Below, in pieces: positions 41,262 through 60,971 of a DNA stretch of 64,000 nucleotides (positions are counted from its first letter, which is position 1; each line of letters opens with the position of its first letter). Both the position numbers and the translations under genes were made by a program. The notes beneath the pieces were generated by a model. The model did not search any database and was not told the origin of the DNA. It saw only the letters and a program-made list of their open reading frames with translations. Origin of the DNA: a virus (taxonomy: Duplodnaviria > Heunggongvirae > Uroviricota > Caudoviricetes); IMG/VR virus record IMGVR_UViG_3300034160_000140, one strand, 5' to 3'.

Positions 41262-41396
41262 ATGCAAGGTTCTTTCGGTGACGCAGTAGAACGTTTTCGC
41301 GGCGGCAAGAAAAAAGACAATGAACAAGCAAAGTTCCACAAAAAAGATAACGAGTTTCGGAATAAACGCCGGAATCGTCATCAAGACGCAGAGTAA
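41262..41396 (+). CDS. small Lys/Arg-rich protein (44 aa), copy 1 of 4
   Basis: MQGSFGDAVERFRGGKKKDNEQAKFHKKDNEFRNKRRNRHQDAE; AAGGATAC Shine-Dalgarno site; ~93% nucleotide identity to 48141..48275. Confidence 0.5.
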   Translation: MQGSFGDAVERFRGGKKKDNEQAKFHKKDNEFRNKRRNRHQDAE

Positions 41397-41465
41397 TCAA
41401 CCAGCAAAGCAGTAGCCAGTCTACTGCTTTCTTGCTAAAGTCTTTCTTTAACGAGGTTTGTCATC

Positions 41466-41714
41466 ATGAAAAATCAATCAGAAAGTGGGCTTGGTAATCA
41501 GAAATATCTTAAAATTGCCTTGACCTTTTTGGCAAGTATCTTGATTTTATCCACTGCGGCTGGTGTTGTTTATCACATTTGGTTGGGCACTCACCTTGTG
41601 GCCGTTGCTTTGAGTATTGTTTTGGTGGTAGAAGCTTTGGCCGTGTGCTACTGTAATGCCATTGTTCAATTGTTTAAGACGTTGGATAACGTTAACGACC
41701 TTATCAGCGATTAA
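41466..41714 (+). CDS. small membrane protein
   Basis: CGAGG Shine-Dalgarno site; 2 TM helices. Confidence 0.45.
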   Translation: MKNQSESGLGNQKYLKIALTFLASILILSTAAGVVYHIWLGTHLVAVALSIVLVVEALAVCYCNAIVQLFKTLDNVNDLISD

Positions 41715-41735
41715 GCCTATTATTTGAGGAAATTT

Positions 41736-42050
41736 ATGTTGAAAATTCCACCCGGAACACGAATCCTTCTGGTCTATGATCCAGTTCATGGTGTTCCGAC
41801 ATCTGATGGTCTAGCTGCTGAATTTGTGGCGGATATTGTTGAAAGTAATGATGATCAGTTGATTTACACATCCAGTTCGCTGGTTATTGATTATTTCCGA
41901 TTGGCTGTCTTCAAGAAAGAGTTGTCGCCAAACGATATTGTCATTCGTTTTAATGATAAGGAAATTCTTCTTACGAAGGAAGGCCGATTTTCTGAGTGTC
42001 CAGTTGGTTTTTGCGACTATATGGAAAACATTCTTATGCAGTTGATTTAA
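41736..42050 (+). CDS. hypothetical protein
   Basis: GAGGAAA Shine-Dalgarno site then ATG 41736. Confidence 0.5.
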   Translation: MLKIPPGTRILLVYDPVHGVPTSDGLAAEFVADIVESNDDQLIYTSSSLVIDYFRLAVFKKELSPNDIVIRFNDKEILLTKEGRFSECPVGFCDYMENILMQLI

Positions 42051-42133
42051 TTCATCAAAAATGAGTTTTTACTTTACTCAACAAGGCGATTTTGATATAA
42101 TACAGACAAATCAGTTAGCCTTGGTATCTCATC

Positions 42134-42523
42134 ATGAAGACCAACAATCAGACAATCCTTAATGCCATTGTAGAACGCTGTAAAGAGCGTAAGGCTTCTG
42201 CCTATACAGAACGCTTGACTGTGAATGGCGTCGAGTATGCCTACATGTCTGAGGTCGATCCACATTGTGATGAGCCTATGGGCGATGAGCGTGTTTGGAC
42301 AATTACGTTTGTTGCAGTGAAACCCGGTTATTTTTTCATTTATCATTTGGATGGCGAGCGGTTTTGTGTTGAGCCTGAACTCGACAAACCTTACCAATTC
42401 AATTTTACTGAGCTTCACGCTTTGTTGAAAAAGAAAAATGTTAAACATTTTGATAATGAAAGTATTTGGGATAATGAGATTGAACCAGATAAAAAACTGG
42501 CTTGCATTTTCACTATTGGTTAA
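42134..42523 (+). CDS. hypothetical protein
   Basis: Promoter ttgaTATAAT at ~42093. Confidence 0.5.
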   Translation: MKTNNQTILNAIVERCKERKASAYTERLTVNGVEYAYMSEVDPHCDEPMGDERVWTITFVAVKPGYFFIYHLDGERFCVEPELDKPYQFNFTELHALLKKKNVKHFDNESIWDNEIEPDKKLACIFTIG

Positions 42524-42554
42524 TTATTAAGAAAAATAATCGGAGTTTGAACTA

Positions 42555-42887
42555 ATGAAAACTAATGCACCATTTAATTTAACTATTAAATTCATGCAAT
42601 ATGGAGTTAATCCAGAAGCTGATCAATATGTTCATCAATGTTATTTTAATGCTGATGGCTCTATTGTAAAGCTTTCCCCTGACATGTCTGATCGGCCTGA
42701 TGAAATCTTCTTTGCAGTCGAAACAAAACATGGTTGGAAAAAGATTGAAAATCGTGATTTGGTTGTATTAGAAAATGGTAAACCTTATGTATATCCGCTG
42801 GCTCTTTTTTTGTCAAATCCACCTGTGGTATATGAAACACCTAAATCTAAAAGTTACGGCCTTTTTGGTTTGGTTATCGTGGATTAG
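42555..42887 (+). CDS. hypothetical protein (paralog of 42957..43238)
   Basis: FMQYGVNPEADQYVHQCYF...GWKKIENRDLVVLENGK aligns with FQYGTDPEAAEHVHQCYM...GWQRIEDGDFVVLKNGE. Confidence 0.5.
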   Translation: MKTNAPFNLTIKFMQYGVNPEADQYVHQCYFNADGSIVKLSPDMSDRPDEIFFAVETKHGWKKIENRDLVVLENGKPYVYPLALFLSNPPVVYETPKSKSYGLFGLVIVD

Positions 42888-42956
42888 TCGATCAATATTT
42901 TTACAAAAAATAAAGTTTATGTTATAATCGTTATCACAATTTATATGAGAGACATT

Positions 42957-43238
42957 ATGAAGAATTATAAAAGTAAAGAAATTGTTGAATGTCAAGCCTT
43001 TCAGTATGGCACTGACCCAGAAGCTGCAGAACATGTTCATCAATGCTATATGGGCTATGAAAACAAAGTTGTCAAGGTTCCCGGTGATATGATGGGAACA
43101 CCTAAAAATGCATTTTTCGGTGTGAAAACTAATGATGGCTGGCAACGCATTGAAGACGGTGACTTTGTTGTCCTGAAAAATGGCGAAAAACTGGTGGTGC
43201 CTTACTCGGTATTCAAACTCACTTTCTCGGAAGTTTAA
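42957..43238 (+). CDS. hypothetical protein (paralog of 42555..42887)
   Basis: See 42555; GAGAGA Shine-Dalgarno site; promoter tgTTATAAT at ~42918. Confidence 0.5.
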   Translation: MKNYKSKEIVECQAFQYGTDPEAAEHVHQCYMGYENKVVKVPGDMMGTPKNAFFGVKTNDGWQRIEDGDFVVLKNGEKLVVPYSVFKLTFSEV

Positions 43239-43263
43239 AAAATCCTTTTTTGGAGTTGAAATT

Positions 43264-43434
43264 ATGCAAGGTTATATGGTTTATGCGTGGGATCAGTATT
43301 ATCCGACAACCGCTGACAAGCAAGTGAAAGGTGTTTTTCTTGACGAAGTAAAGGCAGAAGCCTTGAAAAAGGAACTTGAGTCATCAGGTCATTACAACTA
43401 CGTTGAATGCGAGCCTATTCCTATCATTGAATAA
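43264..43434 (+). CDS. hypothetical small protein (56 aa)
   Basis: TTGGAG Shine-Dalgarno site then ATG 43264; terminator 43470-43500. Confidence 0.4.
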   Translation: MQGYMVYAWDQYYPTTADKQVKGVFLDEVKAEALKKELESSGHYNYVECEPIPIIE

Positions 43435-43513
43435 GATCTCAGCTAACTTCGATCATATTAGGATATGAATAACAAAACCCCATTCTTGGGGTTTTGTTTG
43501 TGTGTTATATAGT

Positions 43514-44380
43514 TTAGTTAACTTGGCAAACTTGATATCCGCCTGATTGATATGGCCCACGTCTGTATAGTTTACCATCAGTTCCTCTTACATCTGGATA
43601 GTTAGTTAAGTAGTCTGGATTGACATAATTTCTATATACAACATTACCTTGCCATAAAACAGTTAATTCTGTAATGTAACCTTCATCTTCTTGATAACCC
43701 CATTCATAAGAACTCCATGCGAAGTTACATACTGTCGCTGGTTTTGTTCCAATACTTGTTCTGGTTGATGTGGTTGTAATGGATTGATTTTCAATAGTCG
43801 ATGATCCTACATTTCTTATCACATTTGTGGTTGTTTCTTGTTCACGATTTTGTTTGCTACGAGTTTGAGGTTGCTTACAATCCGTTGCAGTTTGTGTGAA
43901 TGATTGACCAGATGTGACCGTTGATGTGGCTGGACTCCAGTTCGTGCAGCTTGTTACAGCCCCACTATTAACCCATGTTGTGACATCAGCAGCAATCGCC
44001 ACCCATGTTTCTAATGTGCCTACAGCACTCCGTGTTTGAGTTGTGTTAATACTTTGGGATTCATTGTAAGGATTTCCAATGTTACGAATACTGCCTGAAA
44101 CATTATCAACTTCTCGATCTTGCACTGTTCTGGTTTGATCTTGCTTACAGTCGTTTGCTGTTTGTGTAAACGTATTTCCGATGGTTATTGCAGATACTGC
44201 AGGACTCCAATTTAAACATGAATGCACACTTCCTGTGTTTTCCCAATCGCCATACAATGGAGAATTTGCAGTCCAACTGGCAAATCTTACTGGTTCATCT
44301 AAGTTAAATTTAACAATATATTCAGCTTGTATTATGCCACCAGCTAATGCCAGCGTTAATGATAGTAATGTTTTTTTCAT
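43514..44380 (-). CDS. secreted modular-family protein with two Cys-pair repeat domains
   Basis: Signal peptide ...GGIIQA/EYIVKF; two copies of W.N(T/S)G.V.SC.NWSP..S....G..FTQTA.DCKQ.QTR..Q.RE; C-terminal ...GGYQVCQVN tail. Confidence 0.6.
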   Translation of the reverse strand: MKKTLLSLTLALAGGIIQAEYIVKFNLDEPVRFASWTANSPLYGDWENTGSVHSCLNWSPAVSAITIGNTFTQTANDCKQDQTRTVQDREVDNVSGSIRNIGNPYNESQSINTTQTRSAVGTLETWVAIAADVTTWVNSGAVTSCTNWSPATSTVTSGQSFTQTATDCKQPQTRSKQNREQETTTNVIRNVGSSTIENQSITTTSTRTSIGTKPATVCNFAWSSYEWGYQEDEGYITELTVLWQGNVVYRNYVNPDYLTNYPDVRGTDGKLYRRGPYQSGGYQVCQVN

Positions 44381-44643
44381 AAATATTTTATTATTTTTTT
44401 ATATTTTAACATACAATAATATAAATGGAAGATATTAAACTAAAAAAAACTTTTAATTTTGCTTAATTAACAATATAATTATGTGTATTTTACATATATT
44501 TATTTTGTAATATTGAGTTGAATGTTGTAATTTTATTGTTACCTATTTTAATGGGATGCTGTCAGCAATATCCTTAGATGATATTTTTGCTTTTGTCAAT
44601 TTATAATTCATATAACTATTTGAAAAATAAGCTAAAAAAGTTC

Positions 44644-44672
44644 TTGACCTTAACAGTGATTTTCTCTATAAT
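44644..44672 (+). promoter_or_regulatory. strong sigma70 promoter (TTGACC-17-TATAAT) driving the tRNA cluster
   Basis: cTTGACCttaacagtgattttctcTATAAT; downstream leader ccccatcaagacgaaac resembles the CA-rich leaders of the small basic-protein genes. Confidence 0.6.
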
Positions 44673-44835
44673 TACCCCATCAAGACGAAACGGAGAAACA
44701 AACATCTTGCCAGAATAAACCAGCACTTCTTATAAGCAGCTTGTTTTGGAATAATAACTTCGGTTACCAATATAGCTTGTAAGTATGGAACACTACTCGG
44801 TGCAGATATAAATAGAGTAGTCCATATCATATTAA

Positions 44836-44921
44836 GCCCGAGTGGTGAAATGGTAGACACGGGAGACTTAAAATCTCCTTCTCGTGAGGGAGTGCCGGTT
44901 CGAGTCCGGCCTCGGGCACCA
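44836..44921 (+). tRNA. tRNA-Leu (anticodon UAA), 86 nt with long variable arm and encoded CCA
   Basis: Manual fold: acceptor GCCCGAG/CTCGGGC, 3-bp D stem, anticodon stem GGAGA/TCTCC with loop CTTAAAA, 15-nt variable arm, T arm GCCGG-TTCGAGT-CCGGC. Confidence 0.85.
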
Positions 44922-45187
44922 AATTAAAAGTTGCACAATGTTCTTGAATGGCTTAAAATAGCCTAACTTTAATCAGATGGAGATAAACAGAGATTTTCGT
45001 AGGTTGGCATCCTGCGAATTCAAGCAGAACCAAAGACCTTTGGTAGACAAATAAATCCAAAGTAGGGGCTTCGATAAAGAGATTAGAAGTCGCTTGGAAT
45101 AGATTGCTAGGTATTTATATTTTAAAATAGAGAATATATAATTGAGGATACTGGGTGGTTTAGACATGTTTCTAAGCCACCAACCAC

Positions 45188-45264
45188 GGGACTTTAGCTC
45201 AGTTGGTTAGAGCAACCGACTCATAATCGGCAGGTCACAGGTTCAAGTCCTGTAAGTCCCACCA
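45188..45264 (+). tRNA. tRNA with CAU anticodon (Met, or Ile2 if C34 is modified), 77 nt with encoded CCA
   Basis: Manual fold: acceptor GGGACTT/AAGTCCC, D arm GCTC-AGTTGGTTA-GAGC, anticodon loop CTCATAA, T arm ACAGG-TTCAAGT-CCTGT. Confidence 0.85.
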
Positions 45265-45383
45265 GATTGAAAGATTGAAAATAATATTAACCACTAGATA
45301 ATCTAATCGAGTGCCCGAGGTGAACTACCGATGCAGCCATGACCTTAAACTAAATCAGAGAATTTAATTAAGATGATATAAAA

Positions 45384-45407
45384 ACCCCGTTGATACGGGG
45401 TTTTTTG
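45384..45407 (+). terminator. rho-independent terminator closing the tRNA transcription unit
   Basis: ccccgttgatacgggg followed by T6. Confidence 0.75.
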
Positions 45408-45481
45408 TTTATAAAATATAATAGCTTTACATTAATTGCTTTTTTTGTTATCATAACACCATTCAAAAAAGGAATCTTTCT

Positions 45482-45811
45482 ATGACTAATAATGTTGAAT
45501 TGTCGTCTCGGTATCAAACATTTGTAGACCGTGCAGTAGGCAATTTTTCAGATTATGAGAAAAATTTGAAAGGTGATGGTTCTTTTCAATATTCTGACCA
45601 AGTAGTTGAACTTCTTCAACTGTCTAATAAAATGAATGGAAACTTGTTGGTTTATTTGTTTGGTGAACAACTTGGACATCATTTGGCTGAGAAGTTTGTG
45701 ATTGAGTGCCGTCGCAACTTGCTTGAATTCTTCAATTGTATTGACAGTCAGTATCGTTTTTTTATCTTGCACGAACTTAAAAACAACAAACATTTGTTTG
45801 CTTATTGCTAG
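45482..45811 (+). CDS. hypothetical protein
   Basis: AAAAGGAA Shine-Dalgarno site. Confidence 0.5.
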   Translation: MTNNVELSSRYQTFVDRAVGNFSDYEKNLKGDGSFQYSDQVVELLQLSNKMNGNLLVYLFGEQLGHHLAEKFVIECRRNLLEFFNCIDSQYRFFILHELKNNKHLFAYC

Positions 45812-45838
45812 TCTATCATTTAAAGAGGATATATTTCC

Positions 45839-46015
45839 ATGCACGAAGAAATTCGAAAGACCTATTACCGTAAGCGTGCTGATGGTAGTATGGGTTATGC
45901 CGAAATCAGCAGTTATAGTTATCCCGATCAGGATCGTTTCCTTCAAGCCTGCTATTTTTTTGAGGCTGATGGCTATTACGAATCCTTCGAAGACGCTCAA
46001 GACGCCAATGATTAA
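45839..46015 (+). CDS. hypothetical small acidic protein (58 aa)
   Basis: AAAGAGGA Shine-Dalgarno site; terminator 46030-46060; not in the ORF track. Confidence 0.4.
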   Translation: MHEEIRKTYYRKRADGSMGYAEISSYSYPDQDRFLQACYFFEADGYYESFEDAQDAND

Positions 46016-46115
46016 TCTGTTTTTTGTTGTTATTAAGCCGCCATTTTGGCGGTTTTTTATTGCCCATTCTTTTGTTTTTTGCTATAATAAGTCATCAACC
46101 AAAGACAGGTTTATC

Positions 46116-46586
46116 ATGATTTCTATCGAACTGTATCCTAATCCAGCCGAAAACCCAGAGATTGTAAAACTGGTGTTTCAATCCATGCGGAATAAATACA
46201 CTGCAGATTCAGACCCTGCTGGATTGACCTTTAAAGAGGTTCGTTCGATTATCACCACTCACCCTGTCACTGTCATCAAAGATGGTGATAAAATTGTGGG
46301 TATTGTTAACGTCAATGAAGTTCACTTTTCGCTCAAAAATAGATTGGGTTTAGAACATCAGTATTTCAACCTTGGCATGATTTATATTGCGAAAAAAGAA
46401 CGTGGTAATGGCTATGCCAGTCAGGTAGTTGAACATTTCCTTAAAATTCACAAAAACCTTATTTACATTGTTCATGAAAGCAATAAAGCAAGCAATAAAA
46501 TTGCCGTAAAATATTTCAAATTCTTTAAACAGCAAGGATCTTTCAGATCATTTGAACCCTATAACATTTATAAGATAGAACAATAA
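46116..46586 (+). CDS. GNAT-family N-acetyltransferase (putative)
   Basis: VGIVNV...FNLGMIYIAKKERGNGYASQVVEHF resembles the acetyl-CoA-binding motif A (R/Q-x-x-G-x-G/A); start at the ATG after promoter tgcTATAAT, since the track ORF at 45702 runs through the promoter. Confidence 0.5.
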   Translation: MISIELYPNPAENPEIVKLVFQSMRNKYTADSDPAGLTFKEVRSIITTHPVTVIKDGDKIVGIVNVNEVHFSLKNRLGLEHQYFNLGMIYIAKKERGNGYASQVVEHFLKIHKNLIYIVHESNKASNKIAVKYFKFFKQQGSFRSFEPYNIYKIEQ

Positions 46587-46689
46587 TCTGTAAAAAAATA
46601 GTGAACAATAATCCGGCTTAGTTGTCGGATTTTTTGCTTCAGTTTGAATAAATGTGCTATAATCTAAGAATAATTTTAGAGGTGTTATC

Positions 46690-47298
46690 ATGACCGATCT
46701 CATTATTCCTGACCATGTGTTGGCGTCAGCAAAAGATTTTTTAGAACAAGAAACCTTTTTCTTTCAGAGTCGTGTGAGTGCTGTTTTTAAGCCGATGAAA
46801 ATGGTTTATGATGATGTTGGCTGTTATTGTGTCATTGCCATGACTAATGGTGATGAGCGATTTTTTGATAGTTATCCATCCCTTAACCAAGTTGTTCGAC
46901 ATAGAGTTCCTATTTCCATAAAAGAAGGCAAAAAAAGAATTCCTTATGCTATTGATTTGAATGCTATCAATAGTTCAATCAAACTGAATCATAGAAATCT
47001 TTATCGCAATAATTTGTGGTTTGAGTTTACGGGTAATGATTTAAATAAGGTCATACTTAATCAATCTATTACACCAGATGGTTCAGAGGATGTTAGGTAC
47101 TTGTTATATTCTGATGAGTTGAGCAGTCAGTTTAAGTTAAATGAAAGCAACAGTGCTGCTTTTTATGTTTTCAATCATTTAATGACGCATACTCAGTTGA
47201 AAGAGATTTTGCCAGAAGATAACTACTTTTCACAGTTTAAACATTTTGTAAAAACAGATAGTTCTCATATTGAACTTTTAAAGATGTATGCAATTTAA
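46690..47298 (+). CDS. hypothetical protein
   Basis: AGAGGTG Shine-Dalgarno site; promoter gtgcTATAAT at ~46655. Confidence 0.5.
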   Translation: MTDLIIPDHVLASAKDFLEQETFFFQSRVSAVFKPMKMVYDDVGCYCVIAMTNGDERFFDSYPSLNQVVRHRVPISIKEGKKRIPYAIDLNAINSSIKLNHRNLYRNNLWFEFTGNDLNKVILNQSITPDGSEDVRYLLYSDELSSQFKLNESNSAAFYVFNHLMTHTQLKEILPEDNYFSQFKHFVKTDSSHIELLKMYAI

Positions 47299-47342
47299 CA
47301 ATAACACGTTACAAAAAATCATAAATTATATAGGAGAACTTT

Positions 47343-47600
47343 ATGAGTAAACCGCTTTATATTTTAGTCACTGATGGTGGTGATGGCAGTTATAGCACTT
47401 CGTTTACGTTGGATTCAGAACTCATTCAACGGCTTGAAGCTGCGGCGGATAAGGGTTTGATGGATCATCCACATGCTGGTTATGATGGTGATGGCTTCCA
47501 TTATGATACTATTCAGGTGCCTGATGATGCAACATATGAATCATTAGATATTTCATTTGTTTTGAGTGATGATGCCGCTGATAAATTTGATAATCTTTGA
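47343..47600 (+). CDS. hypothetical acidic protein
   Basis: TAGGAGAA Shine-Dalgarno site; terminator 47625-47650. Confidence 0.45.
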   Translation: MSKPLYILVTDGGDGSYSTSFTLDSELIQRLEAAADKGLMDHPHAGYDGDGFHYDTIQVPDDATYESLDISFVLSDDAADKFDNL

Positions 47601-47702
47601 TATTTATACATTTTCACCAATTAACCGTCCTAGTGGCGGTTTTTTATTGCTTCTAAATTCAGTTTTATGGTATAATCAATTTCCAACATCGGAGGTTTAA
47701 AC

Positions 47703-47891
47703 ATGATTTTTACACCACATGCTCAGATTTACGTTAATGGACTTGGTGCATGGTTTCGCATTATTGATCAAACTGATGATAAGGTGCGGTTGGTTAACTC
47801 GGATGGTTACGCCAAGTGGGAAAGTAAAGCTGAAATCGAATCGTTGATGGAAAAGGATGAACCTTCTCTTTGCACTGATGGTGATCTATAA
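47703..47891 (+). CDS. hypothetical small protein
   Basis: CGGAGG Shine-Dalgarno site; promoter tgGTATAAT at ~47667. Confidence 0.4.
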   Translation: MIFTPHAQIYVNGLGAWFRIIDQTDDKVRLVNSDGYAKWESKAEIESLMEKDEPSLCTDGDL

Positions 47892-48028: not shown

Positions 48029-48058
48029 ATTGTTTTGAAGATTTTTGAAAAAAAATGA

Positions 48059-48087
48059 TTGACCGATAAACCGCTTCTTGATATACT
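48059..48087 (+). promoter_or_regulatory. sigma70 promoter (TTGACC-17-TATACT with TG extension) for small basic protein copy 2
   Basis: TTGACCgataaaccgcttcttgaTATACT. Confidence 0.55.
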
Positions 48088-48140
48088 TATCCCATCAAAA
48101 CGAAACAACACAAACAAACTAATAGGTTAGGAGATACAAA

Positions 48141-48275
48141 ATGCAAGGCTCTTTCGGTGACGCAGTAGAACGTTTTCGCGGTGGCAAGAAAAAAGACAAT
48201 GAACAAGCGAAGTATCACAAAAAAGATAACGAGTTTCGGAAGCGTCGCCGTAATCGTCATCAAGACGCAGAGTAA
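48141..48275 (+). CDS. small Lys/Arg-rich protein (44 aa), copy 2 of 4
   Basis: MQGSFGDAVERFRGGKKKDNEQAKYHKKDNEFRKRRRNRHQDAE; leader cccatcaaaacgaaacaacacaaac; GGAGATACA Shine-Dalgarno site. Confidence 0.5.
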   Translation: MQGSFGDAVERFRGGKKKDNEQAKYHKKDNEFRKRRRNRHQDAE

Positions 48276-48388
48276 AATCCTGTAAAAAAGGCATCCGAAA
48301 GGGTGCCTTTTTTGTTTCCGTTATAAAAATAGATTGCTTTAAAATCTGTTTTTTGTTATACTGTCACATCAATCAAAAAAGGTGACTT

Positions 48389-48769: not shown

Positions 48770-48794
48770 TTTCATTAAAATAGGAGAAAAGATC

Positions 48795-53846: not shown

Positions 53847-53955
53847 TCGACACTGCTAAAAGACCTTCTTCGGAAGGTTTTTTTATTTCCAAAAAAAGAT
53901 TGTATGAAAACTTATTTTTGTGTATAATCAATCTACTTTCTTAGGAGATACACCC

Positions 53956-54699
53956 TTGAAAAACATGACTCCGATGGCAATGTTGAAACCAGAATTGGCT
54001 CAGTTTAAAGAACTGGCGTTCATTTCTTACTTTGAACTCAATCGCAAAGAAGAACGTCATACGTTTGCCAACGAGCAAATGTATGTGTCGGCGGCTGTAA
54101 CGTTTGACTTCATGGGTATTTTTAACATTCGTGGTGGTATTCACTACAATGAGAAAGGCCATCAGCGATTTGATCGCAGCTTCTCGTTTTGTTTCAATTT
54201 CAAAGATGGTGAACCTACCGTTCGGGCATCTATTAAGCCATCGAAAGACCTGTCGGCTGAATACTCGCGTGAATTCTCGGTTGCTGAAATCAAACCCAAG
54301 ATGAATGCTTTGCTGACCTTGGGTATCACTGACAAAGAAGAATTCCTGAAAGCGTTTGTTCAAGAATTTGACATTATTATCAGCTCGGCTTTGACAATTT
54401 CAGCTCTGAACGCCATCAAGGCCGAACGTGTCAAAGAAGTTGAAGATGTCATGGCTCGCTTCAAAGCCGCTAATCAGGCCGTTGACGCTGCTCGGGAACT
54501 GTTATGGGCTACCGAAATTGCAAACCGTGGCGATGCTCAATTGCCAAAACAACGTGCTCAAATGGGCGAAGCAATGGACAAGGCACGGGAATTACTGACT
54601 CAGCGAACGTTTCTGTTGACCAACAACACAAAAAACATTCCAGCGTATGCCCGTGACCTGTTCTACAAAGAGTTGAAGCAAAAAAATATCATTTCTTGA
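53956..54699 (+). CDS. hypothetical protein (TTG start at 53956, or ATG at 53965)
   Basis: GGAGATACACCC-TTG reproduces the GGAGATACA-N3-start spacing seen at 48141, 55860, 59039 and 60840. Confidence 0.45.
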   Translation: MKNMTPMAMLKPELAQFKELAFISYFELNRKEERHTFANEQMYVSAAVTFDFMGIFNIRGGIHYNEKGHQRFDRSFSFCFNFKDGEPTVRASIKPSKDLSAEYSREFSVAEIKPKMNALLTLGITDKEEFLKAFVQEFDIIISSALTISALNAIKAERVKEVEDVMARFKAANQAVDAARELLWATEIANRGDAQLPKQRAQMGEAMDKARELLTQRTFLLTNNTKNIPAYARDLFYKELKQKNIIS

Positions 54700-54799
54700 T
54701 AGTCGCTTGTTAAGAACCATTAAAAGCCCTGAATAATCTTGTTTTTGTTCGGGGCTTTTGCTATAATAGCCTTACTCAAACACAAATGGATTAAATATC

Positions 54800-55555
54800 A
54801 TGAATCGAGTCACCATCAAGAACTCCCCGATTGAAGGTCAGTGGATGTTGGTTGACACTCCAGAAAATTTGATGACTTTCATGGAACATACTTCCAGCCA
54901 AGTGGTTGCACAAGTTAGCCATTTGATCCGTGAGAAAGCCGAAATTGAAAGCTGGGGTGATGTTCCACGCACTACACCGGCTGCTGGCATCCTTGCAGCA
55001 ACTGTTGCTCACTGCAAACTTCATGGTAAAAACCCAATTTATGAATTGGATGGCATTATCAACAAACGTTTCTCCAATATGCTGGCAGAAATTCTTGATG
55101 GTAAACGAGTGCTGATTAACTCAGCAGGTGGCTATTGCTTCATGCTTCCAGAATGGGAAGTGGAGACAGAGGAACCTGTTGATATGGGGTGGAAACCTAC
55201 TCACGTCATCAATGCAAACACCCAATACATCAACCTTGAAAATGACCCGTATCTGGAAGAACACACACGTCAGTATTTGGGACAACGAGATGCGAATTTT
55301 TCCTACATCTTGAATTTGGGCGGTTATACAAAAGAAGCTTTGGTGTCGGTGTTTACCGAATTCAAAGCAAACGGTGGCAAAATCGTTTATGTTTACACCA
55401 CAGGTATGAACGTGCCTCAGATGTATGAATACTTTGATGCTGCACAGAAGGCAGGTTTGAAGGACTTTGAGTTCCATTTTAATGCCTTCATCACTGATGG
55501 TATCCAAGGCTTTATTGAGCATATCAAAGATCGGGCCAATGTGACTATCCTGTAA
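54800..55555 (+). CDS. hypothetical protein
   Basis: Promoter ttgcTATAAT at ~54761; terminator 55575-55600. Confidence 0.5.
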   Translation: MNRVTIKNSPIEGQWMLVDTPENLMTFMEHTSSQVVAQVSHLIREKAEIESWGDVPRTTPAAGILAATVAHCKLHGKNPIYELDGIINKRFSNMLAEILDGKRVLINSAGGYCFMLPEWEVETEEPVDMGWKPTHVINANTQYINLENDPYLEEHTRQYLGQRDANFSYILNLGGYTKEALVSVFTEFKANGGKIVYVYTTGMNVPQMYEYFDAAQKAGLKDFEFHFNAFITDGIQGFIEHIKDRANVTIL

Positions 55556-55656
55556 TACGAAGACATCAAAACAAAGGCACCTTCTGGTGTCCTTTTTTGT
55601 TGAGATAACTAATCAATTTTGGTATAATCAACATTCCATAACAGCGGTGAAAAATC

Positions 55657-55770
55657 ATGAAAGAAATGGTTGAAGGAATGAACAGTATCGTCATTATCGG
55701 TTTTTTGGCTATTGGTGTTTTTGCAGTTATTGAATTCTATTACCGGCATCAATTCAAAAAACACCTTTAA
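55657..55770 (+). CDS. small membrane peptide (37 aa)
   Basis: AGCGGTGAAAAATC-ATG; promoter tgGTATAAT at ~55620; single TM segment IVIIGFLAIGVFAVI. Confidence 0.3.
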   Translation: MKEMVEGMNSIVIIGFLAIGVFAVIEFYYRHQFKKHL

Positions 55771-55859
55771 TTGAACAAAAATATCTTTACATAAAATCTG
55801 ATTTTCGCTATACTTGTCTCATCAAAACGAAACACCACAAACCAGTCGGAGATACACAA

Positions 55860-55991
55860 ATGCAAGGTTCTTTCGGTGAAGCAACAGAACGTTTTCGCGG
55901 CAAGCAACAAGACGCTTCCAAGACCAAAGAAAATCGCAAAGAACGTCAGTTCCGTGATGCTCGCCGCAACCGTCATCAAGACTCCGAATAA
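55860..55991 (+). CDS. small Lys/Arg-rich protein (43 aa), copy 3 of 4
   Basis: MQGSFGEATERFRGKQQDASKTKENRKERQFRDARRNRHQDSE; leader ctcatcaaaacgaaacaccacaaac. Confidence 0.5.
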   Translation: MQGSFGEATERFRGKQQDASKTKENRKERQFRDARRNRHQDSE

Positions 55992-56002
55992 GGAAATCCA
56001 TC

Positions 56003-56311
56003 ATGTATTTAATTGCCGTTAAAGACCTCGATCCGAAAAATGCTCTTGGCTACATGTTCTGGTCTGGATTCAAAGCTGACGCACAAGGCGATGGCTCTCT
56101 GCCTACCTTCAACAAACCAATGGTCAGTGCTGACAAAGGCTTTCAAGAAAACGAAAAAAGCCTGCAGGCTACTCTGTTCACCACCAAAGAGTATGCTGAA
56201 AAAGAAGTTATTCGACTCAAAGAACTTATCCATAAACATACAGGTAAGTATTACGAGATGGAAACAATCAGTGCCGACTTGGCTGGTAGTATGTTGAAGC
56301 TCTGGAAGTAA
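56003..56311 (+). CDS. hypothetical protein
   Basis: AAGGAAATCCATC-ATG; terminator 56325-56350. Confidence 0.5.
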   Translation: MYLIAVKDLDPKNALGYMFWSGFKADAQGDGSLPTFNKPMVSADKGFQENEKSLQATLFTTKEYAEKEVIRLKELIHKHTGKYYEMETISADLAGSMLKLWK

Positions 56312-56403
56312 CCAGACTTTAAAGAAAAGGGAGCTTAGGCTCCTTTTTTGTTGCCTATTATTCTGTTTTTTGTTATCATCATAATCTAAATTAAGGAGGC
56401 TTC

Positions 56404-56646
56404 ATGAAAACGCTTACGACAAAAAATGTTGCTGGTTCAGTTGCTGAAATGATCGGTGTTGAAGATATGATTGCCGCCTTGAAAGAGCTTCCAGCCGGTT
56501 CAAAGCTATGTGTTCGTCAAGAAGGTTTTTACGCTCTTGGTAAATTTGCTGACATCAATTTGCCGGAAGCCATCACTGTAACCGATGAGGTTACAAAAGA
56601 ACAAGTTGTCGTCTACTCCATCGGAGACAGTGATCAAAACTACTAA
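56404..56646 (+). CDS. hypothetical protein
   Basis: AAGGAGG Shine-Dalgarno site. Confidence 0.45.
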   Translation: MKTLTTKNVAGSVAEMIGVEDMIAALKELPAGSKLCVRQEGFYALGKFADINLPEAITVTDEVTKEQVVVYSIGDSDQNY

Positions 56647-56838
56647 TCGACAGGTTTCAAAAGAAGACAGCTACGGCTGTTTTCTTTGTTTATATATTTA
56701 TTTTTATATGAATGTGATAGCATTTTGATATTTAAATTTATATAAAAAATAATTGACATCATTGTACTCCGAGGTAAATTATTAATTAAGAGTTGGGTTT
56801 AGACTAACTTGGAAGTTAATATTAATAACGGAGAATAC

Positions 56839-57321
56839 ATGTTTTCACTTATTATCTCGATCATTTCTATTGCTCTTATGGCTGCGTTATCTGTTGCAAC
56901 AATTGCTTATGGATTTTATGCCTATAACAACAATTCTATTTATACAAAAGCAACTTACTTATTAAATACTGCAAACACTATTGCTACTGCTGCTATTTTT
57001 GCGAAAAATGAAGGCGTTTCCATGACTGGCATGAGCGTTGACAATGTGAGTAAACTTAAAGATGCTGCCTATTTAACACACGTTCCTAACTATGAAAGTG
57101 TTGACTTTGTAATTGATGCGGATGAGTCCTTAGTTAAAATACAAGACTCAGCATTACTTTCACTTGATGTTTGTAAACAGATTATTGCTAATTATGACAC
57201 CCTTAAATTTGACACTGTTTCAACTATTCCTGATGACCCTATTGATGGTCGTAAATATGGTTGTCATGTTGGTTCAAGTGGTGCTGGTTATTACACGTTT
57301 TATTATCGTATTGATAAATAA
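56839..57321 (+). CDS. hypothetical protein with N-terminal TM helix
   Basis: AACGGAGAA Shine-Dalgarno site then ATG 56839; preceded by a 190-nt AT-rich spacer. Confidence 0.45.
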   Translation: MFSLIISIISIALMAALSVATIAYGFYAYNNNSIYTKATYLLNTANTIATAAIFAKNEGVSMTGMSVDNVSKLKDAAYLTHVPNYESVDFVIDADESLVKIQDSALLSLDVCKQIIANYDTLKFDTVSTIPDDPIDGRKYGCHVGSSGAGYYTFYYRIDK

Positions 57322-57329
57322 TCAAGTCG

Positions 57330-57362
57330 AAAAAAAAGACTGTTTCAACAGTCTTCTTTTGT
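57330..57362. terminator. bidirectional rho-independent terminator
   Basis: A-run, agactgtttcaacagtct, T-run between convergent genes. Confidence 0.7.
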
Positions 57363-57773
57363 TTATTCGTCCATCTTGTCTTGGGCCATTGAAAGGCGTC
57401 TTCTAAACTCAAGTGGGTCAGCAATATACTTGATAGGGGCATTGCCATGACCAGTCCCTGATACGATAATTGTTCCAAAATTAAACATTCGGCCCATCAA
57501 CCCTTGATTAACTTGAATACTTTCAACTTTTTTCAAGTTTATTTCAACAGTGTCTCTCTGGATAAATCCTTTTTTAGCAATCAATCGTTTATTGGTGACA
57601 GCGAGTTCTGTACACTTTTTCTGAATGTAGACAACCACTAAAATTACAATACCTACAATAACAGGAATAAGTAGTACACCGAAAAAGATCTGCCAAAAGA
57701 AACCCCAGTTACTTAAACTTGCTTCATATTCAATTTTCTCACCGTCCATCAAGTTGTCACTTACATAACTCAT
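57363..57773 (-). CDS. membrane protein with bacterial PH (YdbS/YdbT, DUF304-like) domain
   Basis: N-terminal TM helices then ...AVTNKRLIAKKGFIQRDTVEINLKKVESIQVNQGLMGRMFNFGTIIV, typical of bPH_2; GGAGGAATGCT-ATG on the minus strand. Confidence 0.5.
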   Translation of the reverse strand: MSYVSDNLMDGEKIEYEASLSNWGFFWQIFFGVLLIPVIVGIVILVVVYIQKKCTELAVTNKRLIAKKGFIQRDTVEINLKKVESIQVNQGLMGRMFNFGTIIVSGTGHGNAPIKYIADPLEFRRRLSMAQDKMDE

Positions 57774-57924
57774 AGCATTCCTCCATTGTTCCACATAATA
57801 TATCAAATATTGATATTTTTTCAAGACATATTTTAGATTATTATGTAAGTTTCCATTACAACTTAAAATGCTTGATTAAAAAGCTTGAATTTGATATAAT
57901 TAACCAACATTTAGAGGGCTTTAT

Positions 57925-58194
57925 ATGAAACATATCACTCGCTTTAATTCTGGCTTGATTGCAATTATTTTTGCGTTGCTGGCGATTGTCTTTTTTCAAA
58001 GTGTTCGGTATTCCGCTCATATGGAATATCATGTATCCAAAGATCTTCCGATTTGGTTTCATATCGGGCTTGTGCTGATGTTGGTTTCGATTGTTTTTTC
58101 ATCTCTATTTTGTTTGATCGCTTGGGCATATACACCACACAATAACTTTCAGCCGAAGGCCGAAGAAACAACAGAACTTGACACTGTTGTTTGA
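57925..58194 (+). CDS. small membrane protein
   Basis: TAGAGGG Shine-Dalgarno site; promoter ttgaTATAAT at ~57890; 2 TM helices. Confidence 0.4.
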   Translation: MKHITRFNSGLIAIIFALLAIVFFQSVRYSAHMEYHVSKDLPIWFHIGLVLMLVSIVFSSLFCLIAWAYTPHNNFQPKAEETTELDTVV

Positions 58195-58257
58195 TAAATC
58201 ACTTTACTAAAAATGTGTTTTTTGATAGAATAGCTCATCAACTTAAAATGGAATGAC

Positions 58258-58473
58258 ATGATGAAACTCATTATAAAAATGTTGGCTTTGTTTTTGCTGG
58301 CCTGCTTTTTCATTTTTGCTGGTGTTATGATGTGTGTTCGTGGTCAATTTTCATCCGATATTACATTTTTGATGTTTCTTTTTGGAGCGTTTTCTTTTTT
58401 CATTATGTTTGTTCATTATGATTTGGATAAGCATAGCAAGCCTTATGAAGCAGCCATCAAAAAAAATTATTAA
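58258..58473 (+). CDS. small membrane protein
   Basis: Promoter tgaTAGAAT at ~58225; 2 TM helices. Confidence 0.4.
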   Translation: MMKLIIKMLALFLLACFFIFAGVMMCVRGQFSSDITFLMFLFGAFSFFIMFVHYDLDKHSKPYEAAIKKNY

Positions 58474-58506
58474 TTTAATCGTTCATCACTTCAAAGGATA
58501 AACACA

Positions 58507-58974
58507 ATGAAACGGTTTATTTTCTCTAAAATCACAATTGTTTTTGTTGTCCACATACTGCTTTTAGTTGGCCTTTATTATGGAACCAAATCAATTGCAA
58601 TGGTTCATGATCGGGCAGTAGTTCCTGTTTATCTGGTTGCTGTTAAACCTGATTCTGCAAAAACTTATGATGAAAATGGTTTTTTTATCGGTCAATTTGT
58701 TGGTGAATTTGACTATGAAGGTCACCGATTTGAACAAAATATTTCAATAAGCCAACGATTTGAGTTGATTCAATCGAAAAAGCCTGTTAGACACATGAAA
58801 CTTCTTTCAGCGGCTGAAATAGGTCTTGACACTCCTTTCAATGGGCCGGGAACATATCTTTTTTATATACTTTCGATGGCTACATTCTTCTTAATGTTTT
58901 TGTTTACTGACCTTCCAAAATTTTACAGGGCTAATCAAAAAACTGTTTTTGATGAAAATAAAGCTTGCTCGTAA
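58507..58974 (+). CDS. membrane protein
   Basis: AAAGGATAAACACA-ATG; N- and C-terminal TM helices. Confidence 0.45.
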   Translation: MKRFIFSKITIVFVVHILLLVGLYYGTKSIAMVHDRAVVPVYLVAVKPDSAKTYDENGFFIGQFVGEFDYEGHRFEQNISISQRFELIQSKKPVRHMKLLSAAEIGLDTPFNGPGTYLFYILSMATFFLMFLFTDLPKFYRANQKTVFDENKACS

Positions 58975-59038
58975 ATGTGTTTTTTGATATGATAGACACA
59001 TCAAAACGAGATACCCAATCAAATATCGGAGATACACC

Positions 59039-59551
59039 ATGACCAAAGTTACCGCTCTCGAAACCGCAGTAATCGTGAACATCGTTGCTCTCGGCACTTC
59101 GTCGGTAAATGTTCAAACTATCACTACCGGCCCAGAAGCTGTAAAGCTCTCTCAGGTGAATGCAGTTCTCTTGAACCTGAAAGGCAAAGGTCTGGTTTCC
59201 CGTGATGGCGAAGGTGTTTCGCTGACTGAGGCTGGTGTTGCTCTCCACGCCGAACTGTTCCCGGCTCAGAAAGACCTCGACACCCTGCGTCACGAAAGCA
59301 ACTTGGAACTGAATCGCCCAGCCAAGCCATCTTCGGCCCATGAACTGAAACTCATCAATGAACTGATTGAGCTTCGCACCAAGGCCCGCCGTCTGGCAGC
59401 CGATTTGACTGAACTCGAAACAGAAGTCATGCCACGTAGCTTCTCGGAAGTCATTTTTAGCATGTTCCCAAATGCTGTGAATGTCAAAATGGCTCATATC
59501 GAACCGATTGACCTGACTGGCTACCCAATTGCCGCCGTAGTTGTCGAATAA
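59039..59551 (+). CDS. putative winged-helix DNA-binding protein (paralog of 3282..3680)
   Basis: See 3282; CGGAGATACACC-ATG; terminator 59565-59595. Confidence 0.5.
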   Translation: MTKVTALETAVIVNIVALGTSSVNVQTITTGPEAVKLSQVNAVLLNLKGKGLVSRDGEGVSLTEAGVALHAELFPAQKDLDTLRHESNLELNRPAKPSSAHELKLINELIELRTKARRLAADLTELETEVMPRSFSEVIFSMFPNAVNVKMAHIEPIDLTGYPIAAVVVE

Positions 59552-59649
59552 TAAAAAGAACTTCACTAGAAAGGGGCTTCGGCCCTTTTTGTTTTTATAA
59601 TTAAATCTTTTTTGATACAATGAGTAACTTATATTAATTAGGAGCATTC

Positions 59650-59928
59650 ATGAAAAAGACATTTATTCTTGCACTTGCACTCGCTCTTTCTGTGTCGGCA
59701 GGTTGTAATGCGGAAGAAAAAAGTAACACTAACACACAAAGTAATATTTCAGGAAAAAAGACTAGATCTGTCACTTGTTATTCAGGAAATGCAGTAACTT
59801 ACCAACATGACAATGTTATTTTGGTCGCTGGCATTACTGATACTGACATTTCTGCAAGAATTCAAGAAGCTGATACGGGAATTAACATCCGGGTTCCTGT
59901 TTCGCAATGTTATTTTAAAGATAATTGA
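59650..59928 (+). CDS. small lipoprotein, family of 3
   Basis: Lipobox SVSAG/C; VTCYSGNAVTYQHDNVILVAGI...CYFKDN aligns with 25285 and 25638. Confidence 0.5.
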   Translation: MKKTFILALALALSVSAGCNAEEKSNTNTQSNISGKKTRSVTCYSGNAVTYQHDNVILVAGITDTDISARIQEADTGINIRVPVSQCYFKDN

Positions 59929-60013
59929 GTAAGAGGCTTCGGCCTCTTTTCTTGTTGTCATTAGAACCATTTTTTGATATAATTATCATCCAATCAATGA
60001 GATAGAGTACATC

Positions 60014-60190
60014 ATGAGCTACTTTGAAGAAGACTCCCATCCAGTCACTCGTTTTGCACTTTTTCCACGGATTATTGAAGGCCAATGGATTTGGATGAAA
60101 TCCTTTGTATCTGATCGTGTGCTTGTTCATGGCCGTATGGATGGGTGCAGCACTGACATCTATGAATATCAGAACCATCGCTTGGCCTAA
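60014..60190 (+). CDS. hypothetical small protein (58 aa)
   Basis: GAGATAGAGTACATC-ATG; promoter tgaTATAAT at ~59976; not in the ORF track. Confidence 0.35.
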   Translation: MSYFEEDSHPVTRFALFPRIIEGQWIWMKSFVSDRVLVHGRMDGCSTDIYEYQNHRLA

Positions 60191-60253
60191 ACCAGTTGTG
60201 AAATATCATTTTTAATGATATAATAACCCCATAAAACATTCCGAGGATTTAAA

Positions 60254-60679
60254 ATGAAAGGTTTTGATTTTCACAAAAAAATGCAATTTCTTGAACTGGT
60301 TGTTCGTGATCACTGCAAGTCCATGCATATCTCTTTGGTTTGCTATGTCATGAACCCAAATAAAGACAAAAAAAGCATGGCCGAATTTCATAAGCTTTCG
60401 GCTCTCAATGATGGTTTTGAGCACAGTCTTAAAACTATCTTCCGTAAATATTTCCGTAACCTCGAAGGGAAAACGGGAGTGGATGTTGTTGTCTCGAATG
60501 AAGAATTGAATGCTTTTACCAAAGCCTATAATCTTCAAAAAGACTTAATGAAAAAGGAATTTGAAAACTTGACATTGTTGGGTGCATCCGAAGATGCTCT
60601 TGATCGCCTTGAAGTTGATATTGCTGATTTTGCTGCATTCTATCGTGATTTCATTGAAGAAGTTCAAGATTTCAAGTAA
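60254..60679 (+). CDS. hypothetical protein
   Basis: CGAGGA Shine-Dalgarno site; promoter tgaTATAAT at ~60217; terminator 60695-60722. Confidence 0.5.
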   Translation: MKGFDFHKKMQFLELVVRDHCKSMHISLVCYVMNPNKDKKSMAEFHKLSALNDGFEHSLKTIFRKYFRNLEGKTGVDVVVSNEELNAFTKAYNLQKDLMKKEFENLTLLGASEDALDRLEVDIADFAAFYRDFIEEVQDFK

Positions 60680-60839
60680 CAAATTTTGACTTCACAAAAA
60701 AGAGGCTTCGGCCTCTTTTTTATTATCAATTATCAATAAACTATAAAATGATAAAAAACTGCTTTACATGATGGATCAATTTCGTTATAATTATCCCATC
60801 AAAACGAAACACCACAATCAAACAGTTAGGAGATACACC

Positions 60840-60971
60840 ATGCAAGGTTCTTTCGGTGAAGCCACAGAGCGTTTTCGCGGCAAGCAACAAGACACTTCGA
60901 AATCCAAAGAAAATCGGAAAGAACGTAACTTCCGCGACAAACGTCGCAATCGTCATCAAGACGCCGAATAA
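60840..60971 (+). CDS. small Lys/Arg-rich protein (43 aa), copy 4 of 4
   Basis: MQGSFGEATERFRGKQQDTSKSKENRKERNFRDKRRNRHQDAE; leader cccatcaaaacgaaacaccacaatc; GGAGATACACC Shine-Dalgarno site. Confidence 0.5.
   Translation: MQGSFGEATERFRGKQQDTSKSKENRKERNFRDKRRNRHQDAE

Follow-up and report, generated by a model that had tools for sequence, protein, structure and literature searches.

The hyperplastic regions of T4-type phages contain promoter-early stem-loop (PeSL) cassettes, in which an early promoter of σ70 consensus with an AT-rich upstream tract is combined with a stem-loop terminator, whereas a Shine–Dalgarno (SD) sequence and a start codon form the 3′ end (Arbiol et al. 2010, PMC2839356; Comeau et al. 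2014, PMC4122927). PeSL cassettes are densely repeated ahead of small ORFans, and indels between related genomes end inside them (PMC2839356, PMC4122927). Here we describe a variant of these T4-type hyperplastic cassettes in a 64,000-nucleotide stretch of the Caudoviricetes record IMGVR_UViG_3300034160_000140 (the window), which contains four dispersed copies (c1–c4) of a gene for a small basic protein of 43–44 amino acids, here called the mini-protein. The protein family, its coupling to tRNA genes, and a promoter-proximal box that the mini-genes have in common with a predicted winged-helix gene are new.

As in PeSL, the promoters of the mini-genes are of σ70 consensus and carry an A-tract, and a hairpin with a U-run is predicted after c1, c2, and c4. 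Likewise, an indel that comprises c3 starts at the promoter/+1 box, and c1 has a swapped promoter and leader. In contrast to PeSL, a subset of the cassettes possesses this extra conserved box at +1, which is limited to three gene classes, and the cargo is a conserved multi-copy gene instead of unrelated ORFans. Mini-circles and recombination are features of PeSL, whereas the cassettes described here are known from sequence alone.

The mini-protein itself recalls several known proteins. The internal proteins (IPs) of T4, IPI, IPII, and IPIII, are small basic proteins of ∼95–190 amino acids with a 10-residue capsid-targeting N terminus that ends in Glu, and their genes lie near nudE and the tRNA cluster. 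The mini-protein is also small and basic, is encoded by several genes in a plastic region near a NUDIX gene and tRNAs, and has a conserved 10-residue N terminus ending in Glu. However, it comprises only 43–44 residues, lacks sequence similarity and a late promoter, does not share its N-terminal motif with other proteins, and does not have Leu or Ile at position −2. Arginine-rich-motif RNA-binding peptides are known from N of phages λ and P22 and from HIV Rev and Tat (RRNRRRR in Rev). With these, the mini-protein has in common a short Arg-rich stretch with Asn/Gln that is predicted to be helical (KRRNRH), but it is a stand-alone protein of 44 residues with a conserved N-terminal helix, and neither homology nor a cognate RNA hairpin was identified. 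Size, charge, expected abundance, and a genetic link to translation genes are features shared with bS21 (also found as phage copies), Sra/bS22, bL34, bL36, and RMF. The mini-protein differs from these in having no Pfam or NCBIfam match, and a likeness to bS21 (ALRRF versus AVERF) was rejected, because hhalign against Escherichia coli S21 gave a probability of 0.3%. Finally, the E. coli tyrT operon contains tpr, a small protamine-like open reading frame (ORF) of obscure function that is co-transcribed with tRNA. A tiny Arg-rich ORF and a tRNA also appear to lie on one transcript in relatives of the window, although the order is reversed, with the ORF upstream of the tRNA, and there is no homology.

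Four paralogous mini-genes and their protein family

All four ORFs were located with the translations given in a preliminary description of the sequence (Table 1). The coding sequences (CDS) of c1 and c2 (type A) are 92.6% identical and those of c3 and c4 (type B) 87.1%, in agreement with the ∼93% and ∼88% given there. The copies are 5.0–7.7 kb apart, which corrects the 5–7 kb that was also given. The c1 peptide is MQGSFGDAVERFRGGKKKDNEQAKFHKKDNEFRNKRRNRHQDAE, from which c2 differs in three residues; the c3 peptide is MQGSFGEATERFRGKQQDASKTKENRKERQFRDARRNRHQDSE, from which c4 differs in five. When each of the four peptides was compared with the window by tblastn, the copies recognized each other with E = 1e-14 to 1e-28, and no further copy was found (nothing else below E = 0.07). 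Each peptide contains 12–14 Lys and Arg residues, which are offset by eight Asp and Glu residues (pI 10.1–10.5; net charge of +4 to +6 by subtraction), so that the term “highly basic” used before was an overstatement.

Substitution patterns indicate that the four ORFs are genuine protein-coding, translated paralogs. Coding tests were based on 32 non-identical CDS pooled from the window and related loci (designated here by L numbers). Entropy at codon positions 1, 2, and 3 amounts to 0.70, 0.57, and 1.27 bits, respectively, so that third positions are about twice as variable as first and second ones. The dN/dS ratio is 0.17 for c1–c2 (dS 0.26), 0.16 for c3–c4 (dS 0.49), and 0.18–0.37 for type A versus type B (dS 0.8–1.4), with a median of 0.24 over 249 pairs. 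Synonymous codons vary at almost all positions, including codons 3–9, and the strong conservation of the 5′ part of the CDS therefore lies at the protein level; an RNA-level constraint on the first codons is ruled out. In length, the four window copies differ by just one in-frame codon, and the monocistronic copies c1, c2, and c4 are under purifying selection over their full length, N terminus included.

The alternative, named as such in the preliminary description, is that the copies are conserved RNA elements or duplicates of one locus created by mis-assembly. Nothing speaks for this beyond the small size of the ORFs and their strong 5′ nucleotide conservation. Against it stand not only the coding signatures, but also the absence of an Rfam match, as scans of the whole window (gathering threshold) and of 40–62 kb (E-value threshold) returned only two tRNAs and sub-threshold noise, and the 5′ regions of the mRNAs, which are less structured than shuffled sequences (z = +0.8 to +1.4). 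The copies have unique flanks, differ by 7–40% (dS between copies 0.26–1.4), and belong to loci that are present in several independent assemblies, where c2 and c4 possess positional orthologs. They are therefore multi-copy genes and not assembly artefacts, and the non-gene explanation is effectively refuted. We are highly confident in this description of the genes and of the cassettes presented below.

Relatives of the mini-protein were collected in two ways, by word-indexed searching among 5.8 billion proteins and by an exhaustive hidden Markov model (HMM) scan of 1.84 billion representatives, which yielded 32 clusters and 32 representatives, respectively. All have 41–46 amino acids; a few longer entries result from starts called too far upstream, reading through the leader (“YPIKTK,” corresponding to TATCCCATCAAAACGAAA). 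The BLAST and HMM searches proposed for the 44-residue peptide thus return a single uncultured lineage and no known family. As far as these searches reach, the family is limited to this lineage of very large genomes of T4-like phages or phage-like elements, which carry T4-type accessory genes. Among species representatives of GTDB, the only match lies on a 46-kb contig of a Flavobacteriaceae metagenome-assembled genome. This contig is probably mis-binned, because its genes use TTGACA/TATAAT promoters and strong GGAG SDs. A tblastn search with two family members and the winged-helix protein described below against 50,697 GenBank phages gave no real match, and the literature held nothing relevant on the peptide motifs or on megabase phages.

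The family consensus is MQGS[FYH]x[DE]AxE[RK]F..G.K.KD...K......[FW]Rx[KR]RRNRH, with conservation of the N-terminal MQGS and of a C-terminal basic stripe, F/W-R-x-K-R-R-N-R-H. Ten positions (M1, Q2, G3, S4, E10, F12, R33, R36, R39, and H40) are invariant in the 32–33 aligned closer members, whereas some more distant homologs vary at a few of these and the most distant ones lack E10. Replacements are conservative (K/R, D/E, and F/W/Y). The AlphaFold (AF2) model is a two-helix hairpin (mean pLDDT 74) that comprises helix 5–13, a GGKKKD loop, and helix 20–37, at the end of which the FRxKRRNRH stripe is located. Scans of the four peptides against Pfam, PHROGs, and NCBIfam gave no match except a meaningless one to TatA (E = 0.13), and both a PDB profile search with the family and a Foldseek search of the AF2 model against PDB returned 0 matches.

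A fifth paralog (type C) lies just outside the window in a contig that is 99.95% identical to it. This copy has its own, different promoter and leader and is followed 18 nt downstream by a tRNA-like gene with an abnormal anticodon loop (71–141 nt before window position 1). In L017, the positional ortholog shows the same arrangement.

Table 1. Positions of the mini-genes, their control elements, and other features in the window
Feature	Position	Strand	Details
c1 promoter	41140–41168	+	TTGTTT, 17 nt, TG-extended TATACT
Mini-gene copy 1 (c1)	41262–41396	+	44 aa, type A; ∼90-nt leader, without box
c1 terminator	41403–41436	+	predicted hairpin and U-run, −14.7 kcal/mol, z = −3.9
tRNA-operon promoter and box variant	44644–44691	+	TTGACC, 17 nt, TATAAT; box variant CATCAAGACGAAAC; conserved in L015 and L018
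tRNA-Leu(UAA) and tRNA-Met(CAU)	44836–45264	+	266-nt structured spacer between
c2 promoter and box	48059–48106	+	TTGACC, 17 nt, TATACT; promoter 48059–48087; box 48093–48106
Mini-gene copy 2 (c2)	48141–48275	+	44 aa, type A; positional orthologs L015:10001 and L026:527
c2 terminator	48283–48314	+	predicted, −19.4 kcal/mol, z = −5.3
c3 promoter and box	55786–55833	+	TTTACA, 17 nt, TATACT; promoter 55786–55814; box 55820–55833
Mini-gene copy 3 (c3)	55860–55991	+	43 aa, type B; without terminator; presence varies among related genomes
Winged-helix gene, promoter and box	58965–59012	+	TTGCTC, 17 nt, TATGAT; box 58999–59012
Predicted winged-helix (MarR-like fold) gene	59039–59551	+	170 aa; box and SD GGAGATACACC in common with c4
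c4 promoter and box	60763–60810	+	TTTACA, 17 nt, TATAAT; promoter 60763–60791; box 60797–60810
Mini-gene copy 4 (c4)	60840–60971	+	43 aa, type B; positional ortholog L030:10001
c4 terminator	60980–61007		predicted, −17.4 kcal/mol, z = −5.5; between convergent + and − genes
Fifth paralog (type C) with tRNA-like gene	L035:9086–9306		MQGSFGDATERFRGGKKRDTEKAKTHEQDKNWRKKRRDRHVNE; 160–291 nt before window position 1
Rnl1-like RNA ligases	21645–22766 and 23721–24854		PF09511 E = 1.5e-27 and 3e-8; phrog_562 E = 6e-73 and 2e-46
Csm6-type HEPN gene	28166–29080		weak match below Pfam cut-off (E = 0.006)
Pentapeptide-repeat gene	625–1509
SPFH/Band 7 gene	19091–19945

Promoter cassettes and their conserved box

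The cassette promoters are close to consensus, with an A-tract at −43 to −39, TTGAC or TTTACA at −35, a 17-nt spacer, and TATAAT or TATACT at −10. Behind such σ70-type promoters, the 15-mer CATCAAAACGAAACA occurs without mismatch at 48093, 55820, and 60797, ahead of c2–c4. The motif GGAGATACA is found at five sites in the window (0.34 expected), three of which directly precede the ATG of c2–c4. The earlier claim that three of the four copies have the same leader behind a σ70 promoter is thus borne out; c1 has a different promoter and a leader of its own. The CA-rich, variable remainder of the leader and the AGGAG motif together form an unstructured initiation region. It had also been claimed that each copy has its own terminator, which applies to c1, c2, and c4 only. 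No terminator was found after c3, and the following gene (102 amino acids, 56003–56311) begins 11 nt after the c3 stop codon and is predicted to be co-transcribed with c3. Beyond the c4 terminator, minus-strand ORFs start at 61022. Terminator-like sites, which are sequence predictions of hairpins, are generally enriched in the window (32 versus 13 expected). No T4-type late motif (TATAAATA) lies upstream of any copy, although the window contains 12 such sites (3.7 expected).

A complete cassette would be read in the order A-tract, −35 and −10 hexamers, box, unstructured CA-rich leader, strong SD and, usually, terminator. Such a design suggests that the mini-genes are expressed early and at a high level, and it would allow massive expression by the host RNA polymerase right after infection.

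The conserved part of the leader is a box, CATCAARACGARRY, located at a fixed distance of exactly 6 nt past the −10 hexamer; the transcription start is predicted at the A of cATCAA. The window contains six sites for this box (0.8 expected). The pattern CATCAA[AG]ACG[ACT][AG][AGT][CT] was found in 30 unique contexts in ∼618 kb of related loci, and in every one of them (30/30) a near-consensus promoter with A-tract precedes it, at a distance of exactly 6 nt from the −10 hexamer. These contexts comprise 17 mini-genes, nine genes of the winged-helix family, three tRNA operons, and one other gene. The nine winged-helix contexts belong to a family of 134–170 amino acids (MTQVTALERAVIRNI...) or to an 87-amino acid relative. 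Many other strong promoters of the window do not have the box. A scan of IMG/VR with the 15-mer CCATCAAAACGAAAC gave ∼120 chance matches and was uninformative.

In the window, a variant of the box also heads the tRNA operon, where the related leader that had been reported ahead of the tRNA cluster was located at 44678. A fifth leader and SD site (58999–59036), overlooked in the preliminary description, lies ahead of the gene for a 170-amino acid protein. A promoter-proximal box is the better reading of what had been called an untranslated leader, in view of the fixed distance to the −10 hexamer and the presence ahead of the untranslated tRNA operon. Because of the latter, the role of the box is not simply to enhance translation; more likely, it serves as an operator, as an initially transcribed element, or as a 5′-end element, and it is probably a promoter/operator element of a small regulon. 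This regulon would be a co-regulated set of mini-genes, phage tRNA operon, and winged-helix gene, with the box acting at the level of DNA or of the 5′ end.

The 170-amino acid protein belongs to a lineage-restricted family. Its AF2 model assumes the topology α1-β-α2-α3-wing, followed by a long helix, and the top Foldseek matches are all regulators of the MarR family and Sso10a (E = 4e-4 to 1e-2). Whereas the winged-helix topology, the long helix, and these matches agree with MarR regulators, the E-values are marginal, and no Pfam or PHROG match was found, the MarR HMM included. It is plausible from the model that the protein is an autoregulator and the candidate binder of the box. A diverged second winged-helix paralog (34% identity) is encoded at 3282–3683 of the window, without the box and after a terminator-like hairpin.

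The mobility of the cassettes was assessed by comparison with Ga0308158_10000001 (1.86 Mb), a ∼75–80%-identical relative that is collinear over the window. In this relative, c2 is flanked by the same genes of 62 and 126 amino acids as in the window. In contrast, c3 is absent, and the same promoter leads straight into the 102-amino acid gene, with the left junction at CATCAA just after the −10 hexamer, which identifies c3 as a cassette indel starting at the box. The promoter and ∼100-nt leader of c1 (41139–41243) are homologous to the leader of an unrelated 182-amino acid gene in L003 and L016, indicating that c1 was placed under a different promoter. Within this leader (41176–41243; L003:8108–8209), a conserved CAAG(A/G)GG...CCCCTTG hairpin is perfect in L003 and has one mismatch in the window.

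The two members of each pair, c1/c2 and c3/c4, resemble each other more closely than they do their own positional orthologs, which indicates lineage-specific duplication or gene conversion on top of the older lineages A, B, and C. This affects the idea that the copies serve gene dosage: the multi-copy state itself stands, but a pure dosage reading is weakened by the presence of at least three old, diverged paralog lineages at conserved positions in addition to recent duplicates. The proposal that the repeated cassettes promote recombination fares similarly. It agrees with the c3 indel at the box and with the swapped promoter and leader of c1, whereas the longest exact runs between cassettes, of only 15–32 bp, weigh against it, and none of the proposed inversions or deletions between copies was seen in related genomes. 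The copies may spread and turn over by recombination at promoter cassettes, as PeSL cassettes do.

Coupling to tRNA genes and possible functions

Of 33 unique mini-genes, nine are followed by a tRNA or tRNA-like gene that begins 7–32 nt after the stop codon, whereas ∼0.07 such cases are expected from the density of tRNA genes (73 in 618 kb of related loci). In L013, L048, L022, L028, and L029, the gene is tRNA-Arg(UCU), which stands at +8/+9 and usually has tRNA-Leu(UAA) behind it. In addition, tRNA-Leu is found at +32 after a mini-gene of L013, and odd tRNA-like genes stand at +7 to +18 after mini-genes of L048, L017, and L035. The succession of promoter, box, mini-ORF, 8–9 nt, tRNA-Arg(UCU), and tRNA-Leu(UAA) may represent the original unit, as it is found again in the most divergent lineages. 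That mini-genes of relatives are directly coupled to tRNA lends circumstantial support to the earlier idea of a nucleic-acid or ribosome binder.

Several further features of the tRNA regions were noted. The 158-nt stretch between box and tRNA-Leu in the window (44679–44835) is conserved in L015 and L018 yet non-coding; it keeps the SD-like GGAGAAACAAAC, followed by ATC in place of ATG. One TATAAATA site (44807–44814) precedes tRNA-Leu by 29 nt. Between tRNA-Leu and tRNA-Met, the 266-nt spacer (44922–45187) folds better than all 200 shuffled sequences (z = −3.2), and a small structured RNA may be located there. In L015, two tandem tRNA-Leu genes take the place of the single one in the window. 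In L013, a relative represented by a 1.54-Mb contig and a 290-kb UViG, 12 tRNA genes, several copies of tRNA-Leu(UAA) among them, were found within 20 kb, and two tRNAs with a CUA anticodon (L013:234–308 and L013:1243–1317; “tRNA-Pyl” according to ARAGORN) are potential amber suppressors that hint at TAG recoding in this lineage.

The explanation that we favor for the locus as a whole combines paralogous mini-genes in promoter cassettes, a small regulon defined by the box, and a mini-protein that acts in trans as an RNA binder. We assign to this combination a probability of about 40%. The mini-protein would be an abundant, basic two-helix hairpin, as predicted by AF2, and its target would be tRNA or the ribosome during an early takeover of translation. 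Taken by itself, this function is a tentative assignment. It is preferred because the mini-gene is fused to tRNA genes in relatives and has its box in common with the tRNA operon, and because the protein combines an Arg-rich helix with a size that resembles that of ribosomal proteins.

A number of points weigh against the favored explanation. The net charge of the mini-protein is only moderate, with many acidic residues. Pfam, PHROGs, NCBIfam, PDB, and Foldseek searches provide no homology that ties it to RNA, tRNA, or ribosomes, and none of the four window copies (0/4) is followed by a tRNA. Early timing is read from consensus matches only. Unlike typical MarR operators, the box does not contain a palindrome, and it could be a promoter-strength or promoter-escape element without a dedicated regulator.

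A basic helical hairpin with a conserved Arg stripe would also suit a protein that binds DNA or the nucleoid, coating or compacting the DNA of host or phage, and thereby shuts off the host or protects the genome. The strong promoters of early type and the multiple gene copies suggest a stoichiometric target, and host-takeover genes, for example for an Srd-like sigma decoy, are found nearby. Nevertheless, we regard DNA binding as rather unlikely, as the protein has a modest net charge, with 8 acidic residues among 44, such a role would not explain why the gene is repeatedly fused to tRNA genes, and neither the PDB profile search nor Foldseek revealed a likeness to HU, H-NS, histone-like, or other DNA-binding folds. 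The close spacing of 8–9 nt between the ORF and tRNA-Arg in several lineages, the tightly held length of 41–46 amino acids, and the polybasic stretch near the stop codon are what would be expected of a cis-acting leader or arrest peptide that controls transcription or processing of the downstream tRNAs and has no function of its own. However, the monocistronic copies with their own terminators are under purifying selection over the whole length, and the Arg codons of the mini-ORFs are CGT, CGC, CGA, and CGG (with a single AGG and no AGA), whereas the UCU anticodon of the linked tRNA reads AGA. A cis role is disfavored by these two facts, and the conservative replacements (K/R, D/E, and F/W/Y) point to a folded product as the target of selection. 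We consider a leader peptide very improbable.

A special case of RNA or tRNA binding is that the mini-protein counters tRNA-directed defence by shielding tRNAs of phage or host or inhibiting an anticodon nuclease, in concert with the neighboring tRNAs and Rnl1 ligases. In T4, Rnl1 and Pnk repair nuclease-cut tRNA. The mini-gene is predicted to be co-transcribed with tRNA-Arg(UCU) and tRNA-Leu(UAA) in relatives, the window contains two T4 Rnl1-like ligases, and related loci contain Rnl1 and Rnl2 matches, but no polynucleotide kinase was noticed near the ligase genes, and the linkage to tRNA could reflect shared regulation only; we consider this role improbable. Slightly less credit still is due to a packaged internal peptide, in which residues 1–10 (MQGSFGDAxE) would be a capsid-targeting propeptide cut off by the prohead protease after Glu-10, and the remaining 33–34 residues would travel with the DNA like T4 internal proteins. 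The targeting sequence of T4 IPs also comprises 10 residues, and A-x-E fits the phiKZ-type cleavage motif S/A/G-x-E. In the aligned closer members, Glu-10 is invariant and Ala-8 nearly so, the portion from residue 11 to the end has a net charge of +6 to +8, and a NUDIX gene and tRNAs are located nearby in the window. On the other hand, the copies have no late motif despite its enrichment in the window, position 8 is Ala, Met, or Thr and not the Leu/Ile of T4 sites, the AF2 model places residues 5–13 in a helix ahead of the long helix 20–37, and the most distant homologs do without Glu-10. Moreover, the targeting sequence of T4 is common to unrelated cargo proteins, whereas the N-terminal motif was found in no other ORF of the window by tblastn, and the HMM scan, made with the whole profile and not with the N-terminal motif alone, gave only full-length relatives of 41–46 amino acids.

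Extending the favored RNA-binder explanation, the mini-proteins may form a new class of phage translation factors: peptides of ∼5 kDa that are made together with phage tRNAs, often from one transcript, and that reprogramme or protect translation by binding to tRNA or the ribosome, under control of the +1 operator box and the winged-helix regulator, in genomes of maybe 1.5–1.9 Mb. In this full form, we judge the proposal unlikely.

Genomic setting and significance

The gene content suggests that the window is an accessory, early-type region of a T4-like element. Besides the Rnl1-like ligases (for the ligase, the best cultured match is Ralstonia jumbo phage RsoM2USA, with 41.7% amino acid identity), the region contains GNAT acetyltransferase and NUDIX matches and densely spaced promoter and terminator signals, and most of its genes are ORFans. 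When 10 neighboring genes were compared with Pfam and PHROGs, no function beyond one GNAT match emerged, and megablast of 8 kb of the window found tRNA genes only. Related loci encode thymidine kinase (tk), HNH endonucleases, Rnl2, an RNase T-like exonuclease, an Srd-like σ70 decoy, and T4 Y00F. Compared with the hosts of PeSL, the element thus has T4-type accessory genes (two Rnl1, NUDIX, tk, Srd-like, RNase T-like, and Y00F), but no core replication or virion gene was seen; the contigs measure 0.25–1.9 Mb.

At the right end of the window, TATAAATA sites cluster before the minus-strand genes at 61–63.5 kb. Several of them (62098–62936, minus strand) are located 20–30 nt upstream of the genes 61668–62075 and 62144–62770. 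This suggests a late-transcribed minus-strand block that converges on the c4 terminator. A 274-bp repeat (62140–62413 and 62862–63135; 86.5% identity) was also noted, and the adjacent minus-strand genes (62144–62770 and 62866–63489) are tandem paralogs.

The window is 99–100% identical to contigs of JGI and maps to ∼1.39–1.45 Mb of Ga0370506_000001 (1,917,244 bp; L002 and L035). The relative used for comparison, Ga0308158_10000001, measures 1,859,102 bp (L015–L017, L024, and L030), and L008 and L032 belong to a contig of 1,539,155 bp. Overall, other samples provided relatives on contigs of 1.84, 1.85, 1.86, and 1.54 Mb, and relatives also occur on contigs of 0.25–1.07 Mb. A 290-kb piece in IMG/VR has a 20-kb region in common with the 1.54-Mb contig. 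An origin of the megabase contigs as concatemers is unlikely, because the mini-gene loci of the 1.86-Mb contig are all distinct and not periodic over ∼294 kb (707–1002 kb). These contigs may be genomes of megabase phages, chimeric assemblies, or chromosomes of bacteria that carry a huge T4-like island or prophage.

Tiny proteins fall under most annotation cut-offs, yet the mini-gene ranks with the best conserved genes of its region, which otherwise consists almost entirely of ORFans. At present, its value is that of a well-defined candidate, and its interest would rise sharply if binding to the ribosome or to tRNA proves true or if the contigs of 1.5–1.9 Mb are single phage genomes. The box and the winged-helix gene would constitute a small, testable regulon, and with the indel junctions, the PeSL model of cassette-mediated gene shuffling now reaches a lineage distant from T4. 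Together, the fusion to tRNA-Arg(UCU) and the box in common with the tRNA operon point to an unrecognized player in the translation of very large phages.

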